DNA of 50,696 bases from NCBI GenBank assembly GCA_035253695.1, contig DATFBS010000064.1, forward strand, positions 1 to 50,696. The letters run 5' to 3'. The DNA comes from Gemmatimonadaceae bacterium. Lineage in GTDB: Bacteria > Gemmatimonadota > Gemmatimonadetes > Gemmatimonadales > Gemmatimonadaceae. Shown here piece after piece: positions 1,016 through 45,700 of the stretch; positions within the stretch are counted from its first letter, which is position 1, and each line of letters begins with the position of its first letter. The notes beneath the pieces were generated by a model, which had not been told where the DNA came from, made no database searches, and saw only the letters and a program-made list of their open reading frames with translations. Made by a program: the position numbers and the translations under genes.

Positions 1016-1172
1016 CCTTTTAAGAGGCGGTAGCACAGAGACACACCGAGACATTGCACAGAGACACATTGAGGAAGATCAACTGCGAAAGCTTTCCTGA
1101 AGCACTGCAGTGGAGTCCTCGGTGTGTCTGTGTGGAAAGTCTCGGCGTGTCTCTGTGCTACCGCTTTTCAGG
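1016..1172. repeat. long imperfect palindrome (~57-bp arms) built from CACAGAGACA/CCGAGAC units; the loop contains two mini-palindromes (GAAAGCTTTC, CACTGCAGTG)
   Basis: Left arm 1016-1075 is the reverse complement of right arm 1106-1172 with a few mismatches or indels. It lies between convergent genes. The right arm overlaps the last 4 codons of the regulator gene. Confidence 0.6.
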
Positions 1173-4217: not shown

Positions 4218-4499
4218 ATGCGACGCTACATGATCGAGCGGGACCTGACGGGCGCCGGCCAGCTCACCGCGGATGAGCTCCGTGGCATCTCGACGAAGTC
4301 ATGTGAGGTGCTCCGTGACCTCGGCCCGGAGGTCCAGTGGGTGCAGAGCTACGTCACCGACGACAAGATCTACTGCGTGTACCTCGCGTCGAACGAGCGG
4401 CTGATCCGCGAGCACGCCAAGCGCGGGGGATTCCCCTGTAGCCGGGTGAGTGAAGTACGGGCAGGGATCGATCCGACGACGGCGGAGCTGAGGCAATAG
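4218..4499 (+). CDS. DUF4242-like small protein
   Basis: 93 aa. Pattern MRRYMIERDL...AGQLT..EL.....KSCEVLRDLGP.VQWVQSYVTDDKIYCVYLA...IREHAKRGGFP matches the DUF4242 family I recall. SD-like CAGGAG upstream. 13 nt after the previous gene. Confidence 0.55.
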   Translation: MRRYMIERDLTGAGQLTADELRGISTKSCEVLRDLGPEVQWVQSYVTDDKIYCVYLASNERLIREHAKRGGFPCSRVSEVRAGIDPTTAELRQ

Positions 4500-4500
4500 G

Positions 4501-4617
4501 TCCCAAGGGTCCTCAGGGTCCTCAGGGTCCTCAGGGTGCGTAGTGCTCAGGGGGTTCACACTCTGAGGACCCTGAGGACCCTGAGGACCCTGAGGACCCT
4601 GAGGACCCTTGGGACTA
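4501..4617. repeat. palindromic element made of tandem 9-mers: (GGGTCCTCA)x3, loop, (TGAGGACCC)x5
   Basis: Direct reading of 4501-4617. Arms are reverse complements with unequal repeat numbers. The loop sequence GGGTGCGTAGTGCTCAGGGGGTTCACACTCTGAGG is conserved in the second copy at 17947-18058. It sits between convergent genes. Confidence 0.75.
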
Positions 4618-5760
4618 GGGCTTTTGACTCGTCTCCACCGGCATTTCGAACTTCACCGGCAGCTGCACCAGCTGTCGCACGCGCTGGCCGCCGAGCAAAG
4701 CCGGATGGAATCGAGCGTTCTGCAGCGCGCGGCGTACGGCGTCGGTGAAGAGCGCGTGGCTCGTCGAGATCGCCGAGATGCTCTCGAGAACCACGAGGCC
4801 GCCTGTGTCGACCACGAACTCCACGAGGACCTGACCGGTCACGCGCTCACGGAACAGGGAATCGGGATACGCGGGCCGCACGGTCGAGCTGCTGTCGGGG
4901 CGCGCGACGTGATCGACCTGGTCGGCGGTGAAGAGCTGGCGCTCCTCGACCTGCTTGGTCAGCTCGGCCGGTGGGGCAGCGGCGCGCCGGGCCTTCCGCC
5001 GACGCTCCTCGAATCCCGTCCAGATCACGATGGCGCCGCATGAGCCCCCACCCCGGACCCACCGGAATTCGGGAGGAACGGTGGCCACGCCGAGGTAGAC
5101 CTCGATTCCCTCGATGATGTAGGGGTCCAGCGCGTCGAGGTCGAATTCTCCGGCGGTCGCCGGGAATCCGTCGAGCCAGACGAGCGGCGCACAACGCATC
5201 CCGCGGAACCGAACGACGTTCGAGAACGTCGACGAGTAGATGCGAGCGCCTGGGACGCTGCGGAACAGGTCGGTCACCTGCGACGGATTCCGCTGGTCGA
5301 TCTGCTCGCGCGTGATGAAATGCCCGCCTGACGAGCGTGAGCGCCGCTGGTAGAATCCCGCCAGCCGTCCATGTTCATCGAACCGGCGGTTGCCGCGGAC
5401 GATCACAGCGGCAAGTGACTGGGCAAGGGGGGTCACGATGACGGACATCGCTGCCGCCTCGTTGGCGGCGATCGCGATGCTGGCGACCGTGGGGATGAAT
5501 CCCAGCCGCCGGACGCCGACGGTGAGCGTGCCCGCGGGCACGTTCGTTAGGCGAAACTCGCCCTGGGCGTTGGTGTGCGCCCGCAGGTTGGTGCCGACGA
5601 TCGTGATCTCGGCTCCGGCGATTCCGGCTCCGGATGAGTCACGCACCATCCCCGCCACGGTACCGCGCGCCGACGGCTGCTGGGCGCGGAGGGACGCGGG
5701 AGTGAGCGCGAGCGCGCCCCCTGCCAGGCCAATGGCGGCCACGCCGCACAGACGACGCAT
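4615..5760 (-). CDS. TonB C-terminal domain protein with N-terminal CarboxypepD_reg-like and plug-like domains
   Basis: The likely start is MRRLCGVAAIGLAGGALALTPASLRAQQ (signal peptide) at 5760. The ORF-track start at 5844 adds 28 aa with no signal-peptide character. CarboxypepD_reg-like β-sandwich (GTVAGMVRDSSGAGIAGAEITIVGT...). C-terminal TonB-like motif (RVTGQVLVEFVVDTGGLV...RQLVQLPVKFEM). Confidence 0.6.
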   Translation of the reverse strand: MRRLCGVAAIGLAGGALALTPASLRAQQPSARGTVAGMVRDSSGAGIAGAEITIVGTNLRAHTNAQGEFRLTNVPAGTLTVGVRRLGFIPTVASIAIAANEAAAMSVIVTPLAQSLAAVIVRGNRRFDEHGRLAGFYQRRSRSSGGHFITREQIDQRNPSQVTDLFRSVPGARIYSSTFSNVVRFRGMRCAPLVWLDGFPATAGEFDLDALDPYIIEGIEVYLGVATVPPEFRWVRGGGSCGAIVIWTGFEERRRKARRAAAPPAELTKQVEERQLFTADQVDHVARPDSSSTVRPAYPDSLFRERVTGQVLVEFVVDTGGLVVLESISAISTSHALFTDAVRRALQNARFHPALLGGQRVRQLVQLPVKFEMPVETSQKP

Positions 5761-5946
5761 GGGACCACCTCCGCCTGCGAGGGTAGGGTCGGGGATGAGG
5801 GGGCGCAAGGGCCAGGCCGTCAGCGCAGTGTAAAGGCAGGCCAACGCTGAGGTCCGCGAGGTAGTGGAGGTAGTCCAGGCGATCGACGAGAAGTCGCCTG
5901 ATCAGCTTGGTCTACCTGGACTCCCTGGACAACCTGGGCAACCTCT

Positions 5947-8997: not shown

Positions 8998-9095
8998 CGT
9001 CGAACGAGGAACGAGGAACGAGGAACGAGGAACGAGGAAGCCGTCGCGAGCTCCGCGCCGCGTTTCCTCGTCCCTCGTTCCTCGTTCCTCATTGG
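8998..9095. repeat. palindromic element: (GAACGAG)x5, 22-nt loop, (CCTCGTT)-type units x4
   Basis: Direct reading. It lies in the divergent region between the E1 and HIT gene starts. The unit GAGGAAYGAGG is shared with the elements at 20053-20133 and 38488-38590. Confidence 0.65.
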
Positions 9096-10303: not shown

Positions 10304-10313
10304 AGTAGGAACT

Positions 10314-10434
10314 AGTGGTCAGGGGTCAGGGATCAGGGGGTGTCAGGGAGGAGGTTGAAGGAGAGAACGGCGCGCTGAAGTTCTCTCCTATGACCTATTC
10401 CCTGACACCCCCTGATCCCTGACCCCTGACCACT
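10314..10434. repeat. 37-bp near-perfect inverted repeat of (GGTCAGG/GATCAGGG) units with a nested inner hairpin (GGAGAGAAC...GTTCTCTCC)
   Basis: 10314-10350 is the reverse complement of 10398-10434 with one mismatch. The inner 9-bp stem is at 10361-10389. It lies between convergent HNH and nadE genes. Confidence 0.75.
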
Positions 10435-10446
10435 AACTCCTGGCTC

Positions 10447-13978: not shown

Positions 13979-16024
13979 ATGAATCGCTCGATCAGTCCTC
14001 GCCTCCTTCTCGTCACAGCGCTGTTCGCGCTCCCGGCGCTTTCAACGCCGTTGCTGTCCGCGCCTGTGCTGCTTGCACAGGAGACGGAAAGCTCCGAGCC
14101 GTGGCGTCTCATTCAGCCGCCGCAGTCCTCGCTCGTCGTTGCGCGTGATGGCTCGCTCATCGGTGAGATCGGGAAGGAGTGGCGCACATCCGTATCCATC
14201 AAGTCGCTGCCGAGGTACGTACCGCAGGCGTTCGTCGCCATCGAGGATCACCGCTTCTACGAGCACGGTGGCGTCGACGTCATCGGGATCGCCGGCGCGA
14301 TCAAGGATGCGGTCACCGGCTCACCGCGCGGCGCGAGCACGATCACGCAGCAGCTCGTCGGGAACATGCATCCGGAGGAGATCGATCGCCGCGATCGGTC
14401 GCTCAGCCGCAAGGTTCGCGAGCAGCGCGCCGCGATCGAGATGGAGAAGCGCTATTCGAAGGATGAGATCCTCGAGGCGTACCTGAATCAAATCGCGTTC
14501 GGCCACGGCTGGTACGGCATCGAGGCGGCGGCACGGCACTACTTCGGGAAAAGCGCGGCGCGTCTGACGCTCGAAGAAGCGGCCACGCTGGCGGCGCTTC
14601 CGAAGGGGCCGGCCATCTACGATCCCATTCGTCATCCCGACCGCGCGAAGAGCCGTCGCGATGAAGTACTCGGGCGAATGGCGGCCAACGGATTCATCAC
14701 CCGCGCGCAGGCGGATGCGGCGAAGAAGCGCCCCCTCGTCGTTGCGCCCAACATGGGGATGTCGGCACCGTCGCCGTACTTCGTGGATGTCGTTAGGTCT
14801 CAGGCGGAGCGCGCCGGGGTACCGGTGATGAATGGGGGATACCGGATCGTCACGACGCTCGATGCCGCGTTGCAGAACGCCGCCGTCGAAGCGCTGACGG
14901 AGGGCACGCGTCGCGTCGAGGGGCTACCAGGATACGGGCAGCCGACCTATGCGAAGCGTGCGCGCGGCCAGCTCGACTATTTGCAGGGCATGGTCGTGTC
15001 GCTGGACGCTCTCACCGGAGAGGTTCGTGCGCTCGTCGGCGGACGTGATTACGCCGAGTCGCCGTTCAATCGAGCGGTCAACGGTGTTCGTCAGCCGGGA
15101 TCGGCGTTCAAGCCGATCGTCTATGCGGCAGCCGTCACCGACAGCATGCCGGCGAACGCGATCGTTCCCGATACCGCGATCGCGATTCCCTTGCCGGACG
15201 GTACGATGTACGAGCCAGGGAACGCCGACGATGAGTTCCTCGGGCCCATCACTGTTCGCGAGGCGCTGGTGCGCTCGCGCAATCCCGTCGCCGTGCAACT
15301 CGGGCTGTTGGTGGGAATGGATTCGGTCGCGTCCTTCGCGCGCCGTATGGGCATCGAGTCGCAGATCGTGCCCGTGCCATCGTCGGCGATCGGGGCCTCG
15401 TCGCTGCGCCCCATCGAACTCGTCGCCGCGTATTCGGCGTTCGCCACGTTAGGTGTGGCGGTCGAGCCGCGCTACATCACGCGCATCGAGGATCGCACCG
15501 GTCGCCCCGTGTGGACGCCGGAGCCGAAGCCGCCCGCCCTCGCGATCGATCCGCGGGTCGCCTTCATCGTGCGCGACATCATGCGGGAAGCCGTGGAGCG
15601 GGGAACGGGCTCATGGGTCCGAAGGCTGGTCGACCCGCGGGTTCCCGTGGCGGGGAAAACGGGCACGACGAACGACAACACCGACGTGTGGTTCGTCGGG
15701 ATGACGCCGGAGCTGGTCGCGGGGGTATGGCTCGGATTCGACCGTCCGCGGCCGATCGCCCGCGGCGCGGGAGGCGGGACGTACGCGGCCCCCATCTTCG
15801 GTCAGATGATCGCGAAATACTACGAGGGCAGAGCGGTCGGTACGTGGACGCCGCCAGCGGGTCTCGTGTCGGCCGAGCTCGATCGCGCAACCGGCCTGCT
15901 CGCCGACGCGTTCACGCCGGATGAGCGCCGCTATACGGAGTACTTTCTCGAGGGGACGGAGCCGATCGAGCTGCGGCCGACTCCGTGGATGATATTCCAG
16001 TACGGGCCACTGGGTGGTGCTTGA
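13979..16024 (+). CDS. class A penicillin-binding protein (bifunctional GT51 transglycosylase/transpeptidase, PBP1A type)
   Basis: GT51 motifs (EDHRFYEHGGVD, GASTITQQL, RKVRE, KDEILEAYLN). Transpeptidase motifs (SAFKP, SRN, KTGTT). Confidence 0.85.
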   Translation: MNRSISPRLLLVTALFALPALSTPLLSAPVLLAQETESSEPWRLIQPPQSSLVVARDGSLIGEIGKEWRTSVSIKSLPRYVPQAFVAIEDHRFYEHGGVDVIGIAGAIKDAVTGSPRGASTITQQLVGNMHPEEIDRRDRSLSRKVREQRAAIEMEKRYSKDEILEAYLNQIAFGHGWYGIEAAARHYFGKSAARLTLEEAATLAALPKGPAIYDPIRHPDRAKSRRDEVLGRMAANGFITRAQADAAKKRPLVVAPNMGMSAPSPYFVDVVRSQAERAGVPVMNGGYRIVTTLDAALQNAAVEALTEGTRRVEGLPGYGQPTYAKRARGQLDYLQGMVVSLDALTGEVRALVGGRDYAESPFNRAVNGVRQPGSAFKPIVYAAAVTDSMPANAIVPDTAIAIPLPDGTMYEPGNADDEFLGPITVREALVRSRNPVAVQLGLLVGMDSVASFARRMGIESQIVPVPSSAIGASSLRPIELVAAYSAFATLGVAVEPRYITRIEDRTGRPVWTPEPKPPALAIDPRVAFIVRDIMREAVERGTGSWVRRLVDPRVPVAGKTGTTNDNTDVWFVGMTPELVAGVWLGFDRPRPIARGAGGGTYAAPIFGQMIAKYYEGRAVGTWTPPAGLVSAELDRATGLLADAFTPDERRYTEYFLEGTEPIELRPTPWMIFQYGPLGGA

Positions 16025-16041
16025 GATCGTTTAGCTAAACT

Positions 16042-16154
16042 TCCGAAGACGTCGGACATCAGACGTCAGAGTTCAGATGTCAGAAACCGAAACCGCACTA
16101 GGCAACGAGGTGTCTGACGTCTGACCACTGACGTCTGATGTCTGAGGTCTTCGG
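16042..16154. repeat. imperfect palindrome built from GACGTCAGA-type units (~42-bp arms)
   Basis: 16042-16083 is approximately the reverse complement of 16111-16154. It sits directly after the PBP gene and overlaps the ORF-track start of the next gene. Confidence 0.6.
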
Positions 16155-16181
16155 ATGTGTCTCTTCTCGCAAACCATCGCA

Positions 16182-16934
16182 ATGCGAAACGTCCTCCTGT
16201 TCTCGCTGCTCGTGTCGGGCTGCGCAACGCAGCCGGCCCCGACTCCAGCCCCGGCCACTCCGTCGATCACCACCGCCGAGCAGCTCGTCAGCGCGATGCA
16301 CGACCGGTACGCCGGCAAATGGTATCCGACGCTCGCCTTCGTGCAGAAGAACACCCGCTACCTGCCGCAAGGGGGCACCGACACGTCGACGTGGAGCGAG
16401 GTGCTGAGCTTCCCCGGCAAGCTGCGGATCGACGTCGAGCCGCGGGCCAACGGCAACGGCAACATCTACCGCAACGACACGGTCTACGTCTTCAACAATG
16501 GGCGACTCGTCAGGCAGGCGCGTGCGCCGCATCCCCTCCTGCTGCTGGGCTTCGATGTGTACTTCCTGCCCGTCGACCGTGCGATCGCCGGTCTGCGCGA
16601 GATCGGCTTCAATCTCGCGCGGATGCACGAATCGACCTGGCAGGGACGTCCCGCATACGTGGTCGGCGCGGTCGCTGGGGATCTCCGGTCACGGCAGTTC
16701 TGGATCGATCGCGATCGCCTCGTGTTTGTGCGGATGATCGAACCGTCACGCCGCGATACGACGAAGACGTCGGAGATCCGCTTCAACCGGTATTACCAGG
16801 TGGGCGACGCCTGGCTCTCTCCGGAAGTGGAGTTCCTCACCGACGGCACCCGCGATTTTCTCGAGGAGTACACGCAGATCAAGACGGGCGTGCCGGTCGA
16901 GGCTTCCGTGTTTGATCCGGGGAAATGGAGATGA
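16182..16934 (+). CDS. hypothetical lipoprotein
   Basis: The likely start is MRNVLLFSLLVSGCATQ (lipobox). The 9 upstream codons in the ORF track overlap the palindrome arm. Confidence 0.5.
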   Translation: MRNVLLFSLLVSGCATQPAPTPAPATPSITTAEQLVSAMHDRYAGKWYPTLAFVQKNTRYLPQGGTDTSTWSEVLSFPGKLRIDVEPRANGNGNIYRNDTVYVFNNGRLVRQARAPHPLLLLGFDVYFLPVDRAIAGLREIGFNLARMHESTWQGRPAYVVGAVAGDLRSRQFWIDRDRLVFVRMIEPSRRDTTKTSEIRFNRYYQVGDAWLSPEVEFLTDGTRDFLEEYTQIKTGVPVEASVFDPGKWR

Positions 16935-16947
16935 CCCTGAGGTAGTC

Positions 16948-18084
16948 CTACCTCGGGTCGTCCCCGGGCTTCCTCCCGACGAAATGGAACCCGACGAGTC
17001 GATGATGCTCGTATCCCGCGAGGATCGCTCGCTTCTTGTCGCGCGGGTCGAACCGTTGAACGCCAAGTACCTGCGACACGATCGGGATGGACGCGAGGGC
17101 CTCCTGAAAGACGGTCGTGACTTCCAGGTCGATGAGTCCCTTCACCTTCGGGCTTCGTGACAGGCGGAGCACTGATCGCCGAATCTGAAACGTGTTGGGG
17201 TCGAGAAAGATCGATCCGTTCACGTCGGGATTCTCGATCTTGGCCCACGCGTAGAGGTCGATGCGAAGGAGGTCCGTTCCATCGACATGATCGAGTCCGC
17301 CATCGACGAAGCAGTGGTTGTCGAGAAAGAGCGGATCGGCGAAGTCGAGCAGCGTTGGAATATTGAAGAACACCTCTCCACGTTGACGGCGAGTGGGACG
17401 CGTCAGGATCCGCCCGGGCCGATACCGCCAGGGCGGCTTACTTGCGACTACCACCGTGTCGATATCGTCGATGCGGGTTTCGCCGTCCCGCAGCTCGCTG
17501 CTGACGATCAACTCCTGCGAGTAGACAAACGGATATCGCTCCGACAGGAGACGGTATTGCTCTCCGTTCATCTGCAGCTGCGTGAGGAGCGTCAGGAGCG
17601 AAGAGTCCGTCACCGCGCGGAGTCCGGGTGTCGTACACGAGGGATTCGCGCGAACCTGCACGGGAGCGAGCTTCAGAGCCACGCGCGTGAGCTCGATCCG
17701 TAGGGAATCCTGTGCTCCCGCCCGCACGGTGAGCATCAGATCCTTTGGCGCATAGCCGAGCCGGCGGATGTGAAGCGCGAACGATCCCGGCGGGAGCGCG
17801 CGCAGCACGAACGTGCCGCTGTCGTTGGCGAAGCGGTGGATCTCCAGCGACGGCACCGCGATCACGCTATGCGCGAGCGGCTCTCCACTCTCGCGCGCGA
17901 CGACGATGCCGACGACGCTGCCTTGCGCCGAGAGAGATGCTGGAAGAAGGGTGCTCAGGGTCCTCAGGGTCCTCAGGGTCCTCAGGGTGCGAGGTGCTCG
18001 GGGTTTTCGCACCCTGAGGACCCTGAGGACCCTGAGGACCCTGAGGACCCTGAGCACCCTGAGCACCTCTGCTCTACTTGGCAT
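16948..18084 (-). CDS. CarboxypepD_reg-like domain protein; N-terminal region encoded by a repeat element (possibly disrupted signal peptide)
   Basis: Mature-like region ASLSAQGSVVGIVVARESGEP...RRLGYAP is paralogous to the N-terminal domains of genes 4615-5760 and 42760-45843. The ORF from ATG 18084 reads through the 9-mer palindrome as MPSRAE(VLR)5...(TLR)4. That ATG overlaps the stop of the upstream cupin gene by 11 nt. True start and secretion status are uncertain. Confidence 0.5.
   Translation of the reverse strand: MPSRAEVLRVLRVLRVLRVLRVLRVRKPRAPRTLRTLRTLRTLSTLLPASLSAQGSVVGIVVARESGEPLAHSVIAVPSLEIHRFANDSGTFVLRALPPGSFALHIRRLGYAPKDLMLTVRAGAQDSLRIELTRVALKLAPVQVRANPSCTTPGLRAVTDSSLLTLLTQLQMNGEQYRLLSERYPFVYSQELIVSSELRDGETRIDDIDTVVVASKPPWRYRPGRILTRPTRRQRGEVFFNIPTLLDFADPLFLDNHCFVDGGLDHVDGTDLLRIDLYAWAKIENPDVNGSIFLDPNTFQIRRSVLRLSRSPKVKGLIDLEVTTVFQEALASIPIVSQVLGVQRFDPRDKKRAILAGYEHHRLVGFHFVGRKPGDDPR
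17947..18058. repeat. palindromic element of tandem GGGTCCTCA / TGAGGACCC units (~45-bp stem), second copy of the family at 4501-4617
   Basis: Near-perfect palindrome centred at ~18003. The loop GGGTGCGAGGTGCTCGGGGTTTTCGCACCC is homologous to the loop of the 4501 element. Confidence 0.75.
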
Positions 18085-18445
18085 ACCTCCCAGCCCCGAG
18101 AAAATGCAACGACACGTACAGCTCGTTCCCTACCACCCAGCTGTCGTGCGGGTCGGCCGGAACGTGGAATAGAGTTCCCGGCACCAGGTCGTGCACCTTT
18201 CCGTCGGCGAACTCCACCGTCGCGTGCCCAGACAGGACGAGACCAATGTGCTCTACATCACACCGCTCCTTGCCGACCGTTGGACCGACGTGCACCGACC
18301 AGCGCCAACCAGGCTCGTACGTCGCCCGGCCAATGGTCATCCCGCCCATCGAGACGAGCTCGAAGCGGCCCTTCTCGAAGTGACGCACTTCATCGGGCGT
18401 TTCGAAGCGCTTTAGAATCAGCTCGTACATCACGGACCTTAGCAA
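18074..18445 (-). CDS. cupin domain protein
   Basis: Small β-barrel cupin pattern (G..H.H....E..YVL.G......G). 123 aa. The start may be the internal MYELIL. Confidence 0.6.
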   Translation of the reverse strand: MLRSVMYELILKRFETPDEVRHFEKGRFELVSMGGMTIGRATYEPGWRWSVHVGPTVGKERCDVEHIGLVLSGHATVEFADGKVHDLVPGTLFHVPADPHDSWVVGNELYVSLHFLGAGRYAK

Positions 18446-18545
18446 AGGTGGATGGCGCTGGACTACATCTGGCGGTTACAGCACGGGACTTGCCTTTTGA
18501 ACGGGCAAGGAAACGAAAAGTCTGCCCGTCAGAGAGGATGAGACC

Positions 18546-19310
18546 ATGCGCCCCTCTTCGTTCTTCGGATTGCTGTCCATCGCACTGATTGGCGCGCTGC
18601 CGCTGGGCTGCGGCGACGATGGGCCGACCGCGCTCGACGATTCCACGGACGGCCCCACCAGCCCGCAAGGGCCACAGGCCACACCGCCCAATCTGGCACC
18701 CACAGCAGTGGCGGGACCAGACCAGTCCGCCGAGTGCGCGTCACACGCGGGCTCGACCGTTACGCTGACCGCTGCGGGGTCCGCGGACAGCGACGGCCAG
18801 ATCACACTGTACGAATGGTTCGAGAGCGGGAAGCGCATCGCAATCGGTTCAACGCCGACAGTCACGCTCGCATTCGGTGAGCACACCATCATCCTCCGCA
18901 CGACGGACGATGACGGTGGAACGAACGATGACGTCGTCGTCGTCAACATCCGGGATACCCAGGCCCCGACGGTCGCCATGGTTGTCAGCCCTGCGAGCCT
19001 GTGGCCGCCTAACCACACCATGCACGTCGTTGCGCGCGGCGTCACGGCGAGCGATGTCTGTGATCCGGCGCCTGCGCTGAGCTTCGCGATCACTAGTGAT
19101 GAGCCGGAGAACGGCCTCGGCGATGGCGACACCGCGCCCGACTGGGCGGTGCAGCCGTCCGGAGCATCCCTCGCCGACGTGCTCGTCCGAGCCGAGCGCA
19201 GTGGACTCGGGAATGGGCGAGTGTACACGATTCGCGCGACCGCGGTCGATCGTGCGGGCAATGGCTCCAGCGCCGCGACCGGCACCGTGACCGTGCCGCA
19301 CAACCAGTGA
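18546..19310 (+). CDS. secreted lipoprotein with PKD/Ig-like domain
   Basis: Signal peptide with LGCGDD lipobox. PKD-like stretch (TVTLTAAGSADSDGQITLYEWFESGKRIAIGSTPTVTLAFGEHTIILRTTDDDGGTNDDVVVVNI). Confidence 0.55.
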   Translation: MRPSSFFGLLSIALIGALPLGCGDDGPTALDDSTDGPTSPQGPQATPPNLAPTAVAGPDQSAECASHAGSTVTLTAAGSADSDGQITLYEWFESGKRIAIGSTPTVTLAFGEHTIILRTTDDDGGTNDDVVVVNIRDTQAPTVAMVVSPASLWPPNHTMHVVARGVTASDVCDPAPALSFAITSDEPENGLGDGDTAPDWAVQPSGASLADVLVRAERSGLGNGRVYTIRATAVDRAGNGSSAATGTVTVPHNQ

Positions 19311-19312
19311 CG

Positions 19313-20092
19313 TCAGGGCACCGAGTCGAGCACGCGCCGCTTACCTAACGGGTCGATGTCGAACGCGACGGCCTGGCGCCGTCGCGCTTCGGCGCCCCGT
19401 ACCGTCGCCAGGGCCGTGTAGTAATCCAGATACGCGAACGACGAGACCCCGCCACGCACGAACTCGTAGCTCGAAACGAGCTCGCGCCACTTGGCCATGT
19501 GGTCGCTGACGTCGATGTACAGGTACGGCTGAAACCGCTCGGTGTCTTCCCAGTTCTCGGCGTACCAGAGACGGGTCCCGCGATGCGCGGGCTCTCCCTT
19601 CGAGCCCACCTCGATCGCGGCGAGCAGCACCGCGTCGACGACGATGGCGTGCGCGGCCGCATGGTCGCGGTGAATGCTCTCCCGCCAATGTGTGATGACG
19701 AGGGTCGGCTTGGTCTGACGAATGACATCGGCCACGTAGCGCCGAGCCTCGTCGGTGTCTGGAACCTCCCCATCGCGATAGGGGGCGAAGATGACGTCCC
19801 CGCCTAACACACGCGCTGCCGCTTCCGCTTCTTTCCGCTTTTGTGCCCCGTACGCCGTCGGCGGAAGCTTGGGATTCCCGCGCTCTCCCAGGCTCAGGTG
19901 CAGAATGACGACGCGATCGCCGAGCTGACGCTGCTTGAGAAGCACGGCACCGGCGGTGAGCTCCATGTCCCCCGCGTGCGCGCCGACGGCCAGGATCGTC
20001 CGGGGTGCTTGCTGACCCTGGGTCGGAACCGCGACCAGGGCGAGAACGACGAAAGGAACGAGGAATGAGGAAGCTGAGATCGTCTTCCTCAT
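19313..20092 (-). CDS. PIG-L/LmbE family deacetylase, secreted
   Basis: LmbE-like N-terminal motif (ILAVGAHAGDMELTAGA) and a conserved HxxH region. The signal peptide MRKTISASSFLVPFVVLALV is encoded by the arms of the repeat element at 20053-20133. Confidence 0.7.
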   Translation of the reverse strand: MRKTISASSFLVPFVVLALVAVPTQGQQAPRTILAVGAHAGDMELTAGAVLLKQRQLGDRVVILHLSLGERGNPKLPPTAYGAQKRKEAEAAARVLGGDVIFAPYRDGEVPDTDEARRYVADVIRQTKPTLVITHWRESIHRDHAAAHAIVVDAVLLAAIEVGSKGEPAHRGTRLWYAENWEDTERFQPYLYIDVSDHMAKWRELVSSYEFVRGGVSSFAYLDYYTALATVRGAEARRRQAVAFDIDPLGKRRVLDSVP

Positions 20093-20133
20093 TCCTCGTG
20101 CCTCGTTTTCCTCATTCCTCGTTCCTCGTTCGC
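20053..20133. repeat. palindrome AGGAACGAGGAATGAGGAAG / CTTCCTCATTCCTCGTGCCT plus a tandem extension of the right arm (GAGGAAYGAGG family)
   Basis: 20053-20072 is the reverse complement of 20083-20102 with one mismatch. A further direct repeat runs to ~20133. The deacetylase start codon (~20090) lies inside the right arm. Confidence 0.65.
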
Positions 20134-20142
20134 AGAACTACC

Positions 20143-21840
20143 TCAGAGTAGCGGTGCGCAACCTGACGGATTCGTGCACACCGGCACCAGCTCGATCCCC
20201 CGATAGTAGTGCTTCAGGATCTCGATGAACGACGCCTTCTTTTCCGCCATGCCGACCGCACCCGTCTGCGACATCCCGACGCCGTGACCGAAGCCGCCGC
20301 CCCACGCCACGAAGCCGGTGAGCTCCTTTGTCTTCCTGTCGTGCACCGGCTCGATGTACACCAGCGTGCTCGGCAGGTTGACCTTCGCGCCGCTGGCGTC
20401 GATGAAGCGAAGCGACGAGCGGATGCGATCCTTCGTATCGGTGAAGGTGCCGGCCTCCGTCACGTACTCGATCGTCTTCACGCGGCCCGATCCGCTGCGC
20501 TCGAGCACGTTGATCGCCAGCACGGCGCCGACGTCCTGACCTGCCCATAGAGAGAGGACGTTGCGGATCTCGGCGTTGGTCCACTCGAACGTCCAACGGT
20601 GGAAGCGGCTCCAGTCCGCCTCGAAGTCGCCTGCCTTCGTCGCGCGGAGCTGCCGCGCGTTCGCGTTGTTCTGGACGCCGTCGTCGTGATTCTCGAGCGA
20701 GTTGCCGCGCTGATGATCGGGGATCCCCCGCAGGTAGGCGACCGGTGCGGAGTTGAAGACATCCTCATTGTTGGCGGTGAATCCACCACTCGTCGAGAAG
20801 TACAGGGCCTCGATCGGACGGATACGATCGACCGTCGCGATCAACCCGTCAGTCTCGTTCACCGCCTGCGTGGAGAGCGGATGCTCATCCTGGAAGCCGC
20901 CGTACACCTGATCGGCGGTCGTCGGGAGCAGATTGTAGCCGTCGGACGCCCGCTTGTTGAAGTTCGCGATCGCGTAGGTGCGCGCGGCGACCGACTGCGC
21001 CTTCAGCGCCTCGAGCTCGGGGAAGGCGATAGGACCCAGCTCGCGAGGCACGACGCCCCACAGATACTGCTCGAGTGGAAGCTCGTTGACTCCGGCGATC
21101 GCACCTCCACCGGTCGCGATGTGAACCTCGGCGACGCCCCGGTACAGCCGCGTCCCGATGCGGACAATGCCGTCGGGCGACGCGAGCACCACGTTCCCCG
21201 GTACATTGGCGAGCGAGGTCGTGCCGCGCCGCACGTCGATCTGCGCGACGCCGTCGGAGCGCGTCACGGTGAAGGGGCCACCAGGCGCAGTCGGGGGGAA
21301 GGTGAGTCCCGCGGCAGTGAAGCTGGCGACGAAGGCGGTGCGTTGCGCCGCGGTCGCGTTCGTCGGCAGCGAGCCAATGCGAAGGCGCCAGCAGTTCGCT
21401 CCCGCCACGAACTCGGTATACCACTCGAACCCGGCGGTAGTTACTCGCGAGGTCCAGTTGTCGCGGGTCGCAACGCTCCCCGTGCAGGCCACCTGCCACC
21501 AGAGCCGCGTGCGAGGCGTTCCACCGGGAATCAACACCGCCGTGAGATTCTCGGCGTTCCCGGTCGCGATCGTTGCACCCGTGGTCTTGTTGATCACGGT
21601 GAACGACGTCGGACTGCCGATCGTCAGGCTAGTCGTGGGCGTCGATCCGTTGATCGCGGCAATGACGCCAATCCGGATCATCCCGGTAAATCCGGCAGGC
21701 GGATCGATCGGCTCACCGATGGTATCATCGCGGCCGTTCTCGAAGCGGGGGGAGTGCGGGCTCGTGACGAGATCGGTGCAGGCGGCAACCATAACGAGCG
21801 TGCCCGAGGCGAGGCTCGTCACCAGACGACCGAGACGCAT
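20143..21840 (-). CDS. SpoIID/LytB domain protein (peptidoglycan amidase-enhancer-like), lipoprotein
   Basis: C-terminal SpoIID/LytB signature region (AQSVAARTYA...YFSTSGGFTANNEDVF...). N-terminal lipobox VAACTD. Confidence 0.7.
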   Translation of the reverse strand: MRLGRLVTSLASGTLVMVAACTDLVTSPHSPRFENGRDDTIGEPIDPPAGFTGMIRIGVIAAINGSTPTTSLTIGSPTSFTVINKTTGATIATGNAENLTAVLIPGGTPRTRLWWQVACTGSVATRDNWTSRVTTAGFEWYTEFVAGANCWRLRIGSLPTNATAAQRTAFVASFTAAGLTFPPTAPGGPFTVTRSDGVAQIDVRRGTTSLANVPGNVVLASPDGIVRIGTRLYRGVAEVHIATGGGAIAGVNELPLEQYLWGVVPRELGPIAFPELEALKAQSVAARTYAIANFNKRASDGYNLLPTTADQVYGGFQDEHPLSTQAVNETDGLIATVDRIRPIEALYFSTSGGFTANNEDVFNSAPVAYLRGIPDHQRGNSLENHDDGVQNNANARQLRATKAGDFEADWSRFHRWTFEWTNAEIRNVLSLWAGQDVGAVLAINVLERSGSGRVKTIEYVTEAGTFTDTKDRIRSSLRFIDASGAKVNLPSTLVYIEPVHDRKTKELTGFVAWGGGFGHGVGMSQTGAVGMAEKKASFIEILKHYYRGIELVPVCTNPSGCAPLL

Positions 21841-31224: not shown

Positions 31225-31329
31225 GTCGCCGAAGGTTTGGGGACGCTCGGCTCCGCGACAGAGGCAATGTGACGAACTGGCCGCGCCATGGAGTGGGTTG
31301 TCACTAGCCAGATGCCATCAAGACCTACA

Positions 31330-31546
31330 GGCTGGCATCAAGAACAAGAAGCGGTTTGACACGGATGACACGGATTGAACTGAAGGTGCCTAATCGTTCA
31401 TGCGCGGCGTAACTCTCCTCTCGCAACCAGAAAAAAAAGACATTTCTTGTTGTTGTAGAGGAGGGATCCCTGCGCCCCGCGTCGATCCGGCCGCTTCGGT
31501 TCAATCCGTGTCATCCGTGTTCAACTGCTCTCCGTTCTTGATGCCC
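31330..31546. repeat. ~217-bp highly structured element, copy A (terminal ~48-bp inverted repeats with GACACGGAT tandem units, inner hairpins); candidate MITE or structured ncRNA
   Basis: Near-identical to 35545-35738 apart from a central A-rich insertion. The termini GGCTGGCATCAAGAA...TTCTTGATGCCC are reverse complements. It lies between same-strand genes. Confidence 0.6.
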
Positions 31547-31578
31547 GCCTGTCGCCTCACAAGCCCCGGCAGAGAAGA

Positions 31579-35544: not shown

Positions 35545-35738
35545 GGCTGGCATCAAGAAGGAGAGCAGTTTGACACGGATGACACGGATTGAACGGAAGG
35601 TGCCTGATCGCTCCTGGCCAGCGTAACTCTCCTCGCGCAATCACAAAGAGAGGAGGGATTTCAGCGCACCGAGTCGATCCCGACGCTACCGTTCAATCCG
35701 TGTCATCCGTGTCAAACTGCTCTCCTTCTTAGATGCCC
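35545..35738. repeat. ~194-bp structured element, copy B (paralog of 31330-31546)
   Basis: The outer ~48-bp arms GGCATCAAGAAGGAGAGCAGTTTGACACGGATGACACGGATTGAACGG and their near-perfect reverse complement were read directly. The inner CTCTCCTC...GAGGAGGG hairpin is present as in copy A. Confidence 0.65.
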
Positions 35739-38487: not shown

Positions 38488-38590
38488 GTCCTGCGAGGGA
38501 GGAATGAGGACCGAGGAGTGAGGAATTCGATCGGGCGAGACCGAGGTCATCAGACTTCCTCACTCCTCACTTCTCATTCCTCCATACCTC
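38488..38590. repeat. palindrome of GAGGAATGAGG/GAGGAGTGAGG units (~28-bp arms), third member of the GAGGAAYGAGG family
   Basis: 38488-38515 is approximately the reverse complement of 38563-38590. It sits between the 3' end of gene 38599-39483 and the nfeD start. Confidence 0.6.
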
Positions 38591-42759: not shown

Positions 42760-45700
42760 ATGGGTACGCGCAGTCTGATTCGCGCGGTCGTGCTGACCGC
42801 ATCGTTGGGGACGCTCGCCAGCATCGCTGGCGCACAGGAACAGCAGGCGACGATCACCGGCCGAGTCACCGATGCCAGCACCGGCGAGCCGATCGCCTCG
42901 GCGCAGGTGAGCGTGGTCGGGACGGCGATCGGTGCCGCGACGAACAGCGAAGGTCGCTACACGATCCGAGGTGTTCGCGCCGGAGTCGTAGAGCTGCGCG
43001 TGCTGCGCGTGGGCTACGCGGAACGGAAGCAATCCGTCACCGTGGCCGCGGGCCAGGCGACCACGGCCGACTTCGCGATGACGGTCGCGCCGATCTCCCT
43101 CGCGCCGGTCGTCACGACCGCCACCGGCGAGCAGCGACGTGTCGAGCTCGGCAACTCGATTGGGAACGTCGATGCGGCGAAGCTCACGGAAGAGAAGCCG
43201 ATATCGAACATCGGCGACCTCCTGGCCTCACGCGTCTCCGGAGTGACGGTGACCCCCGGCGTGCAAACGGGCGCCGGTATCCGCATCCGCATTCGCGGAA
43301 CGAGCTCGCTCTCACTCACCAACAATCCCATCTACGTCATCGATGGGATCCGCGTCGAAGGCACCACCGGCGCGTCGTCGGTGAGCGTGGGCGGGACGAC
43401 GACGAGTCGCGTCGGCGACATCAACCCGGAAGAGATCGAGTCGATCGAGATCGTCAAAGGCCCCTCGGCGGCGACGTTGTACGGCACGGACGCGGCGAAC
43501 GGCGTGGTCGTGATTCGCACCAAGCGCGGCGTCTCCGGTCGCGCCCAATGGACGTACTACACCGAGCAGACGGCGATTACCGATCGCAGCGACTACCCGA
43601 CCGCGTATCGCGCGTGGCGGACCGGCACGACGAGCACGACGAACTCGACGCCGTCGAACACGGTGCAGTGCTTCCTGAGCCAGGTGTTGACGGCGGCATG
43701 CACGCAGGACAGCGTCACGAGCTTCAATCTGCATGAGGACGACGAGACGACTCCATACGGCATCGGCTATCGCCAGCAGCATGGCTTGCAGCTCGCCGGG
43801 GGCTCGGAGACCATTCGCTACTTCGTGCATGGCGAGTGGGAGGATGAGGATGGTGTCACCAAGCTGCCCAAGTTCGACGAGCGGTACCTGGCCGCGCGCG
43901 GCCTGTCGCTCCGGGACGAGCAGCAGGACCCCAACCATCTGCGGCGCATAACGGGTCGCGCCAACATCAGCTTCGCACCGCGCGACAACCTCGACCTCGC
44001 CGTCCACGCCGGCTACACATCGCTCGACATCCGGCTGCCGATGAGCGACGACTCCGGCACCGCGGGCATTGCGGCGAACACCTACGGAGGACCGGGCTTC
44101 AAGTACAACATGAACGCCGCCGGCGACACGCTCTATGGCTGGCGCGAGTTCACGCCTCGCGATGTGTACGAGGCGGTCACGGAGCAGAACATCGAGCGCC
44201 TCATCAGCTCGGTGTCGGCCAACTGGCGCCCACGCGAGTGGCTGGCCGTGCGCAGTAACTTCGGTGTCGACTACATCAACCGCGTTGATCTGCAGCTTTG
44301 CCGGTTCGGCGAGTGCACCAACAGCACCGACCGCGCCGGGTTCAAGGAAGACAATCGGACGAACTATTTCCTGTACACGCTCGACGCCGGTGCAACGGCG
44401 ACGCGCCAGCTGAGCGATGCGCTCGAATCACAGACGACGGCCGGGCTCCAGGTCACGCGCAACGTGTTCAATCGCAATGGTGCGCGGGGCGAGCAGCTTC
44501 CCCCGGGCGCCACGACGGTGGGCACGGGAAGCGTGATCCGGGCCGACGAAGCGACCACCGAGAGCCGGACAGTCGGAGCGTTCCTCGAGCAGCGCATGGC
44601 GTTCCGCGACCGACTCTTTGTGACGGGCGCGATCCGCTCCGATCGGAACAGCGCGTTCGGCGCCGACTTCGAGACGGTGTTCTACCCGAAATTCTCGCTC
44701 TCATGGATCCTATCGGAGGAGCCCTCCTTCCCGGCGCTGGGATGGCTCAACCAGTTCCGGTTGCGTACGGCGTACGGAGCCTCTGGCGTTCAGCCGGGCA
44801 CCACGGACGCAGTGCAGTTTTACAGCAGTACTCGCACGATTGGCGAGAGCGGGGAAGCCACGGGCGTCGCTTTCACGGCATTGGGCAACCGCGACCTCAA
44901 ACCGGAGCGATCCAACGAGTGGGAGGGCGGGTTCGACGCCAGCTTCTTCAACAGCAGGGTGAACACCGAGCTGACCTACTATCGCAAGATCTCCAAGGAT
45001 GCGCTCGTCAGCCGCACGCTTCCTCCTTCCATAGGGACGGGTGCCACGACCCGCTTCGAGAACCTGGGGGAAGTGCGCAACTCCGGGTGGGAAGCAATGA
45101 TCGATGCCCAGATCATCGACATGGATCGCTTCGGCTGGAGCCTGACGATGACCGGATCGACCAACAGCAACGAGCTCGTCAGCCTCGGGGGCGTTCCGCC
45201 GATCATCACCAGCAGCACGCTCCGTCAGGTCGAGGGCTATCCGCTCAATGGATGGTGGTCGCGGCGCCTGGTGAGCTACAACGACGCCAACCGTGACGGG
45301 ATCATCGCGCTCGGCGAGATCGTGGTCAGCGACACCGCCGAGTTTCACGGGTACTCCTCGCCCCGCCGCGAGGCGGCGTTCACCAACACGTTCAGCTTCC
45401 TGAACCGTCGGCTGCGGCTGTCCGCCTTGATGGACTACAAGGGCGGCCACCTCGTCTACAACAACAGCGAGCGCATCCGTTGCGCGAGCCGCTTCAACTG
45501 TGCCGGCCTGGTCTCTCGCAACGCATCGCTCTTCGAGCAGGCGAGGACGGTGATGGTGCGCGAGCATGCGAGCCGATCCGTCGCGGGGTTCTTCGAGAAG
45601 GGCGACTTCCTCCGCTTCCGCGAGCTCGCGCTCACCCTCACGCCATCGGATGAGTGGGCCGCGCGGCTGTTCCGCGGACGGAGCATCACCGCCACGGCCG

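Follow-up and report, generated by a model that had tools for sequence, protein, structure and literature searches.

Repeat-driven remodelling of a gene 5′ end at a stop-proximal tandem-nonamer hairpin in a Gemmatimonadaceae bacterium

The contig DATFBS010000064.1 of a Gemmatimonadaceae bacterium (assembly GCA_035253695.1), analysed over its whole length of 50,696 nucleotides and referred to below as the window, carries on its minus strand an open reading frame (ORF) of 378 aa, 16948..18084(-), whose 5′ part consists of a long palindrome made of tandem nonamers. The ORF begins inside the end of an upstream cupin gene, remains open across the palindrome and continues into the body of a gene with a CarboxypepD_reg domain, its translated N-terminus being MPSRAE(VLR)6VRKPRAPR(TLR)3TLSTLLPASLSAQ... 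(Table 1). A preliminary description, made from the letters alone, had placed an in-frame, stop-free palindrome in this 5′ coding region; the palindrome is indeed there and the ORF is open through it, the unit counts first given, (VLR)5 and (TLR)4, being slightly off since the actual ones are (VLR)6 and (TLR)3TLS. Note that the palindrome is stop-free in four of the six frames; an open frame in the register of the gene is therefore unremarkable and no evidence of coding, and the argument from the stop-free frame was dropped for this reason.

The palindrome sets six GGTSCTCAG units opposite four CCCTGAGSA units. Its arms pair in two registers, one with 45 nt on each side at 98% complementarity (17948-17992 / 18007-18051) and the other with 41 nt at 100% complementarity (17948-17988 / 18020-18060), the two arrays being convergent and separated by an inter-arm distance of 14-31 nt. 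Tandem Repeats Finder returned a period of 9, with 4.6 copies at 17948-17988 and 6.3 copies at 18011-18067 (97% matches). RNA folding gave -108 to -119.4 kcal/mol (z = -12.8), a stability that no shuffle equalled, and an 18-nt two-unit probe matched 16 times across the window vs 0 times in 100 shuffles, all 16 matches falling in the element itself or in a second copy at 4499-4615. The 3′ arm runs without a gap into residual signal-peptide codons, the junction continuing as CTTCTTCCA and the codons after the arm reading CTT CTT CCA GCA TCT CTC TCG GCG CAA, i.e., LLPASLSAQ. In addition, a metagenome sequence from another sample and another assembler (L012), 99.6% identical to the window over 4.9 kb, contains the identical 6+4 units, loop and junction, thus the element and its junction are no one-off assembly artefact. 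No match was found by Rfam at gathering thresholds over the entire window, and a promoter and terminator scan of 16000-20300 identified nothing at the element, the two terminator-like matches obtained there being no commoner than in shuffles. Indeed, the hairpin is G+C-rich, as in an intrinsic (Rho-independent) terminator, but no T-run follows it, and the palindrome is not a canonical terminator.

Table 1. Coordinates of the features at the fused locus and of the long hairpins of the window
Feature	Coordinates	Strand	Description or evidence
Whole palindromic element	17948..18067	-	two convergent tandem-nonamer arrays plus loop; starts 6 nt past the cupin stop codon
5′ arm (mRNA sense)	18011..18067	-	GGTGCTCAG x2, then GGTCCTCAG x4; (VLR)6 in the ORF frame
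Loop/spacer	17989..18010	-	GGTGCGAAAACCCCGAGCACCTCGCA; loop size 22-26 nt
3′ arm (mRNA sense)	17948..17988	-	CCCTGAGGA x3, then CCCTGAGCA; (TLR)3TLS in the ORF frame
ATG, the sole in-frame ATG and sole start-type codon outside the hairpin	18082..18084	-	context GGGAGGTATG; from cupin codons Tyr-Ala (TAT GCC)
Residual signal-peptide codons LLPASLSAQ	17923..17949	-	collinear with ..ALLPAALSAQ of the orthologues
Mature gene part: CarboxypepD_reg (transthyretin-like) domain, then LolA/DUF1329-like-fold domain	16948..17922	-	Pfam; model and fold search; dN/dS
Upstream cupin gene, 118 aa	18074..18430	-	stop TAG 18074-18076; weak Cupin_2 match; synteny
Second nonamer copy	4499..4615	.	same units, homologous loop; exactly fills the gap between two convergent stop codons
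The ten long hairpins of the window	1027-1164, 4499-4615, 9002-9093, 10307-10441, 16039-16158, 17948-18067, 20054-20131, 31327-31552, 35555-35730, 38498-38583		

To compare the gene with its homologues, the 333-aa body without the palindrome was used and the 35 closest sequences (56-86% identity) were considered; the metagenome and genome scans relied on a single-protein query, not on an alignment, with at least four and at least two loci, respectively. Many homologues of the gene body exist in Gemmatimonadaceae metagenomes and metagenome-assembled genomes, with identities of up to 86%. Each of the 30 full-length sequences in this set of 35 displays the intact signal peptide for which the preliminary description had proposed to look, that is ~20 aa with an n-region and a hydrophobic h-region ending in ..(A/S)LSAQ (e.g., MKYRFPLLLTVALLPAALSAQ in P0001), and the other five look N-terminally cut. 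The two paralogues in the window also possess classical signal peptides, as first described, with ..LTPASLRAQQ at 4615..5844(-) and ..LASIAGAQEQ in the gene starting at 42760(+). The window aligns with the orthologues from LLP onward only: the palindrome stands in place of the N-terminal half of a signal peptide, of which the last nine codons, LLPASLSAQ, were kept. At the DNA level, comparison with L001, L005 and L015 (L numbers designate the loci compared) indicates that a leader ranging from a few to 35 nt is missing from the window, together with the original ATG and 11-12 codons, the missing stretch relative to L001 being ~54 nt.

The remaining 333 codons are intact, with neither frameshift nor stop. 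Pairwise dN/dS of the window against its orthologues ranges from 0.11 to 0.19, matching the values obtained among the orthologues themselves, and a three-taxon estimate gave ~0.10 on the window's own branch. An intact body of 333 codons combined with a dN/dS of ~0.1 gives no sign of decay, and the suggestion in the preliminary description that the gene may be decaying finds no echo in these values. Within the mature part, the C-terminal domain (16948-17500, residues ~150-370) has no Pfam family and contains two invariant cysteines. Its AlphaFold model reaches a pLDDT of 71, with residues 13-68 having no confident structure, and a fold search made with this model related the C-terminal domain to DUF1329, LolA-like and RseB/MucB folds, the matches being weak (E ~1e-4, target-normalised TM-score 0.43-0.46). 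Such a predicted envelope-protein-like fold fits the need for export.

The ATG at 18084 is the only one in frame and overlaps the cupin stop by 11 nt, as the preliminary description had it, the 3′ end of the cupin gene on the minus strand being ..GGG AGG TAT GCC AAG TAG. The overlap was then read as support for real initiation. However, the ATG arises from the conserved cupin codons Tyr-Ala (TAT GCN) and is also present in L001 and L009, both of which have their own downstream start; since it is dictated by conserved cupin codons, ATG 18084 is weak and non-independent evidence for initiation. In-frame GTGs occur at codons 7, 10 and 25 (18066, 18057 and 18012), all within the hairpin, and past these no ATG, GTG or TTG follows in frame until codon 74. 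A non-canonical downstream start giving a normal signal peptide, which the preliminary description had itself named as contrary evidence, was ruled out, as no start-type codon downstream of the hairpin precedes codon 74. The Cupin_2 match of the upstream gene is weak (E 1.8e-05, 24.8 bits, under the Pfam gathering score of 27.2); two further assemblies have its exact 118-aa product on record, and no identical entry was found for the 378-aa, 369-aa or 123-aa product.

In the relatives, synteny is kept (SpoIID / PIG-L / PKD / cupin / gene / 250-aa gene / PBP1A) and the same cupin-to-gene spacer can be read. In L001, the spacer consists of three GGTGCTCGA-type units, a loop, four TCGAGCACC units and an 18-nt leader, TAACACGTACAGTCAGGT, followed by ATG AGG CAC CGG ... 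GCA CTC CTC CCC, its hairpin folding at -61 kcal/mol. L015 has a hairpin of the L001 kind (-43 kcal/mol), then a 35-nt leader and an ATG, and L005 and L006 have hairpins of GTCGAGG-type nonamers (-56 and -47 kcal/mol, respectively), each followed by the gene's own ATG. These four hairpins lie wholly outside the coding sequence and their units differ from those of the window. L009, L014 and the more distant L010, L011 and L007 contain only relic ..GAGCACC units at this spacer, and folding of the L009 and L014 spacers revealed no significant hairpin, the structure having decayed. As a side observation, one or two ..GAGCACC units and a conserved leader, ..TACCGTTAGGTATG, are kept upstream of the gene at L007 2880-2945, L010 1240-1290, L011 255-320 and L009 60-120, and the upstream stretch read for L007, L010 and L011 shows no end of a cupin gene. 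At the level of sequence, this comparison shows that a tandem-nonamer hairpin in the cupin-to-gene spacer predates the divergence of the sampled relatives, a spacer hairpin of this kind being the normal state in soil Gemmatimonadaceae. Since the resident hairpin of the relatives lies outside coding DNA, the window's case is not a simple insertion into a coding region, and the recent insertion put forward in the preliminary description is not supported in that form.

Two components can be recognized in the window's own hairpin. Its four inner units per side and its loop are homologous to the copy at 4499-4615 (92% identity over 104 nt by BLAST, with aligned loops), and its outermost units, GGTGCTCAG / CTGAGCACC, are of the type found at the same site in L004 and L008. 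L001, L015, L004 and L008 have a common loop core, GAAACGGCAG or GGAACGGCTT, which is not homologous to the GGTGCGAAAACCCCGAGCACCTCGCA loop of the window. The two nonamer copies have no flanking sequence in common. It should be noted that a TAG flanks the copy at 4499-4615 on either strand (4497-4499 and 4615-4617), these being the stop codons of both convergent genes; the bracket could represent a target-site duplication, or the element could supply the stops, and no target-site duplication is seen at 17948-18067. The window hairpin thus seems to be of mixed origin, a resident structure in which a dispersed element made of related units has apparently replaced or converted the interior. Alignment with the relatives shows that the resident hairpin was remodelled in the window lineage and that the adjoining leader, start codon and first 11-12 signal-peptide codons were lost.

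Altogether, the locus is a clear and fairly ordinary case of repeat-driven remodelling of a gene 5′ end. The interpretation that we favour, with a confidence only somewhat above even, is that the palindrome is one of a class of stop-proximal hairpins, whose resident copy at this spacer was remodelled with loss of the start of the next gene, and that the gene body became fused in frame to the ATG embedded in the cupin gene. That the open frame was kept, with the gene body joined through the hairpin to an ATG in the last cupin codons, is shown by the reading frame itself. The loss would have occurred by slippage or illegitimate recombination at the repeat array, and a candidate breakpoint is the CCTGA that the unit CCCTGAGSA has in common with the ancestral Leu-Leu-Thr codons (CTC CTG ACN, as in L005 and L009), a short microhomology. 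If the protein is made, translation would start at ATG 18084, probably coupled to termination on the cupin ORF, and ribosomes would have to get through nine rare AGG codons and unwind the stem of -119 kcal/mol at the same time. In the predicted product, the n-region comprises 41 aa, of which 14 are Arg/Lys; the h-region, TLSTLLPASLSA, is weak and 12 aa long, and the cleavage region, ..SLSAQ, is conserved. As in a Sec-type signal peptide cleaved by signal peptidase I, the n-region is positively charged (14 Arg/Lys and one Glu in 41 residues, most orthologues having one to three positive residues) and small residues precede the cleavage site, ..ASLSAQG being kept collinear with ..AALSAQG of the orthologues. 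A hydrophobic stretch of ~7-15 residues, as expected for the h-region, is lacking on the Kyte-Doolittle scale. Expression and Sec export are probably reduced, not abolished, and a reduced but kept export would fit the continued purifying selection on the gene body; an Arg-rich N-terminus or a mislocalised protein, both envisaged at the outset, are possible outcomes.

A second fused lineage was found in L004 and L008, where the CarboxypepD_reg gene also lacks a canonical leader and ATG and a short hairpin separates the gene body from the same ATG inside the cupin gene, at which the ORF begins; the N-terminus that results, MRSSGRVLRVLGGTALTVSTLFAVPVAAVSAQ, is a plausible signal peptide. Gene-body dS is 0.88 between the window and L004/L008 vs 0.59 between the window and L001, L004 groups with L014, the cupin gene of the window is 82% identical to that of L004/L008 vs 88% to that of L001, and the number of retained signal-peptide codons differs between the window and L004/L008. 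A common ancestry of the fused state was rejected on the basis of dS, cupin identity and retained-codon number; as L004/L008 is not sister to the window on either flank, the fusion arose at least twice. At the cupin end, both fused lineages contain GGG AGG TAT G, AGG is present in none of the six non-fused loci, and in four of these six a TAC removes the ATG. In L014, the likely start is a GTG adjoining two repeat units.

Several observations weigh against our interpretation of the window's gene as remodelled and still expressed. The h-region TLSTLLPASLSA has a Kyte-Doolittle mean of ~1.1-1.2, against 2.32 +/- 0.30 (minimum 1.71) for the best 10-mers of the orthologues, on a scale that is crude and with a window mean taken by hand, the computed best 10-mer of the window being the charged VLRVLRVLRV; given this weak h-region, export may fail outright. 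The GGAGG before ATG 18084 lies 1 nt from it, below the usual Shine-Dalgarno spacing, and the GTGs at codons 7, 10 and 25 are inside the stem. AGG accounts for 9 of the 13 Arg codons in the extension as compared with 3.9% of the Arg codons in 29 window genes, and the 41-bp G+C-rich stem could block or terminate expression. A low dN/dS would also be expected if the event were recent, the nearest differing relative being at dS ~0.6, and the gene differences between the window and L012 (two synonymous and one non-synonymous) are too few to decide. In addition, two relatives let their spacer hairpin decay.

The main rival is a recent pseudogene, silenced when leader, ribosome-binding site, start codon and half the signal peptide disappeared, in which the hairpin ends or blocks expression after the cupin gene and the open frame and the ATG are coincidental; we consider this unlikely. 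Both coincidences are easily granted, as an open frame through a palindrome open in four of six frames is expected by chance and the ATG is dictated by cupin codons, but the fusion is in frame, and the unrelated L004/L008 is fused to the same ATG with a good signal peptide, GGG AGG TAT G being common to both fused lineages and absent from the six non-fused loci. For a silenced gene speak the native start and 11-12 codons that are missing relative to all close orthologues, a residual h-region far under the orthologue range, the nine rare AGG codons of the extension and the stem of -119 kcal/mol; against it stand a body of 333 codons free of frameshifts and stops and a dN/dS of ~0.10 on its own branch.

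Recent insertion of a mobile palindrome into the otherwise intact codons of a signal peptide, in the style of the Rickettsia palindromic elements, appears improbable. Such in-frame fusions between small palindromes and ORFs, 5′ ends included, are documented (PMC3184786), the inner units and loop of the window hairpin do represent a dispersed element copy (92% to 4499-4615 over 104 nt), and its loop differs from the GAAACGGCAG loop of L001, L015 and L004. However, after a pure insertion the native ATG and the first 11-12 codons should still precede the element, whereas they are absent and the cupin stop lies 6 nt away; the relatives carry a hairpin of related units in the spacer, outside the coding sequence, the outermost units in the window are of this resident type, and the element at 17948-18067 shows no target-site duplication.

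Initiation at an in-frame GTG of the hairpin, be it codon 25 next to the loop or one of codons 7 and 10 within the 5′ arm, would shorten the Arg-rich n-region and is more doubtful still. The GTGs at 18066, 18057 and 18012 do exist, the gene call in L012 begins at the equivalent of the codon-10 GTG (369 aa), and the GTG adjoining repeat units in L014 offers a parallel; yet all three are paired or at the stem edge of the -119 kcal/mol hairpin, none has a spaced purine-rich motif upstream, and the weak h-region is identical whichever start is used. Finally, a short-read assembly that collapsed or mis-joined the repeat and so hid the true 5′ end is hardly credible, since, although a third assembly (L013, from Logan) breaks within the palindrome with a variant unit at its end and the repeat is hard to assemble, L012 has exactly the same 6+4 units, loop and junction in 4.9 kb at 99.6% identity, and the junction keeps the frame, the sequence from LLP on being collinear with that of the orthologues.

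The remodelled hairpin belongs to a set of ten long hairpins in the window, whose arms are tandem 7-10-nt units of unrelated sequence and which fold at -35 to -131 kcal/mol. Seven units or more, unrelated to one another, were distinguished (GCACAGAGAC, GGTCCTCAG, GAACGAG, GGTCAGG, CAGACGT, TGACACGGA and GAGTGAG). A stop codon precedes nine of the ten by 0-26 nt, and where the spacer is long these occupy its stop-proximal end; no U-tract follows any of the ten. The exception, at 9002-9093, is a GAACGAG/CTCGTTC hairpin in a divergent intergenic region or 5′ untranslated region. It precedes ATG 8979, the probable start of a 2-oxoacid dehydrogenase E1-like gene, by 22 nt, and the longest-ORF call for this gene crosses it. 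L001 and L006 can be compared with the window over 7 kb of syntenic sequence, in which their hairpins stand at orthologous junctions and are built from diverged units. Their presence varies: a nonamer hairpin of ~100 nt separates the convergent ends of the CarboxypepD_reg and 250-aa genes in L001 (4033-4131) and L006 (3963-4050), and the same junction in the window is a gap of only 13 nt (16935-16947), thus hairpins are gained or lost junction by junction. The window and L012 are equally long over their common 4.9 kb except for a 7-nt unit in the heptamer array upstream of the PIG-L gene (20114-20120), a strain variation resembling that of a variable-number tandem repeat (VNTR).

A second two-copy family is formed by the composite hairpins 31327-31552 and 35555-35730 (176-226 nt), with TGACACGGA-unit arms, a conserved interior and 82% column identity, each copy standing directly past a stop codon. 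Both two-copy families display dispersed copies with a common interior, a trait of miniature inverted-repeat transposable elements, and no transposase was found among the 24 window ORFs scanned against Pfam. Matches to (GGTCCTCAG)3 were also obtained in viral sequences, 12 of them in IMG/VR contigs (L016-L027, several from giant-virus bins); they were set aside as unrelated, since all are collagen-like Gly-Pro-Gln coding repeats in one orientation only. Any function of the window hairpins is putative; the one at 17948-18067, if it acts at all, would most likely be a 3′-end structure for the upstream transcript, by analogy with the repetitive extragenic palindromic (REP) elements.

Other gene starts of the window also lie in or beside hairpins. 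The ATG of the PIG-L gene, 19313..20092(-), belongs to a GAATGAG unit, and its h-region, ASSFLVPF, is encoded by the pyrimidine-rich arm of the heptamer hairpin at 20054-20131; L001 has the same arrangement at 863-928, with a GTG start. With both the start and the h-region of this gene lying within the hairpin, hairpin arms can serve as signal-peptide coding sequence. As for the 259-aa gene, its longest ORF starts at 16155, inside the end of the hairpin 16039-16158, and its second ATG (16182) opens a lipoprotein-type signal peptide, MRNVLLFSLLVSGC; the L001 homologue is 250 aa long, and both this length and the signal peptide indicate that the true start is probably 16182.

The closest published analogue of the window hairpins is the set of paired convergent GGGAATC arrays of Xanthomonas campestris and X. 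axonopodis, which are stem-loop-capable, mostly non-coding, located at most 50 bp from a stop codon or overlapping it, and conserved in position between related genomes with a varying copy number (PMC4692102). Like them, the window element consists of two convergent tandem arrays of short units (6.3 vs 4.6 copies) and lies 6 nt past a stop, as nine of the ten window hairpins lie 0-26 nt past one; the spacer position is kept in L001, L015, L005, L006 and L004/L008, and two strains differ by a single-unit indel in one heptamer array. The Xanthomonas arrays are built on a single G-rich unit genome-wide (GGGNATC), with four units preferred, and were studied as G-quadruplex formers (PMC4692102). 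In contrast, the window units are many and unrelated (7-10 nt), with arms of up to 45-60 nt, at least two kinds are multi-copy with conserved loops and one has replaced coding sequence; the nonamer arm does place a GGG every 9 nt, unlike the heptamer kinds.

The REP elements and the bacterial interspersed mosaic elements (BIMEs) of Enterobacteria and Pseudomonas are likewise extragenic palindromes located past stops or between convergent genes, a gap of this kind being filled by 4499-4615. REPs are transcribed within the upstream mRNA and can stabilise it (PMC3184786). Their hallmarks are an imperfect palindrome of 20-40 nt, a conserved GTAG-type head, a REP-associated tyrosine transposase (RAYT) and copies numbering in the hundreds per genome; the window element is 120 nt long with arms that are tandem arrays, three to four times longer, its nonamer kind has two copies in 50 kb, the window hairpins have no conserved head in common, and a Pfam scan of 24 window ORFs revealed no RAYT. 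REPs lying within ~15 nt of a stop codon can reportedly stall terminating ribosomes (Liang, Rudd and Deutscher 2015).

Among the other small palindromic repeats (RUP, BOX, BRE and Rickettsia palindromic elements), in-frame ORF fusions that include 5′ ends are on record (PMC3184786). The window element resembles the Rickettsia palindromic elements as an in-frame palindrome of ~100-150 nt that adds ~40 residues, and differs from them by the lack of any sequence relationship and by the loss of native coding sequence and start, not only an addition of residues. It is in frame and stop-free inside an ORF as they are, which is weak evidence with four of six frames open; the host protein may function with the element peptide translated, on the indirect evidence of the intact body and the dN/dS of ~0.1. 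The heptamer arrays of the short tandemly repeated repetitive (STRR) or TAACTGA type in Beggiatoaceae and cyanobacteria are intergenic, variable in copy number and often a few nt from a start codon, with 169 direct sets vs one indirect (PMC4679880). The GAACGAG array that supplies the PIG-L start is comparable to them; unlike the window hairpins, the TAACTGA arrays are direct, not paired, and lie upstream of starts, not after stops. No literature was found on repeat hairpins in Gemmatimonadetes, and the window feature combines known kinds, namely paired tandem-array hairpins beside stops and palindromes fused to ORF 5′ ends.

A bolder view, which we rate as rather improbable, is that the stop-proximal array hairpins of Gemmatimonadaceae are a fast-evolving, lineage-specific class that repeatedly rewrites the start and signal peptide of the next gene, the (VLR)n..(TLR)n stretch being translated, the protein exported, and the copy number tuning the efficiency of translation or export. 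Three cases may be offered for repeated start rewriting, namely the window gene, the independent L004/L008 and PIG-L, and any change in nonamer copy number, being always a multiple of three, would leave the reading frame unbroken.

For annotation, the 378-aa and 369-aa calls have an N-terminus made of a repeat hairpin, thus localisation predictions are unreliable for the window protein and probably for others in these genomes, and gene starts beside such hairpins need orthologue comparison. The locus also offers a natural series, from an intact start to a start inside an array and then to a start lost with fusion to the upstream gene, which shows unstable repeat hairpins eroding and rebuilding 5′ ends and why signal peptides tolerate such change. 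If these hairpins are a genome-wide class in Gemmatimonadota, they would provide a second and more diverse example of paired arrays after Xanthomonas, and a palindrome in which the concerted evolution of the two arms would be tractable.

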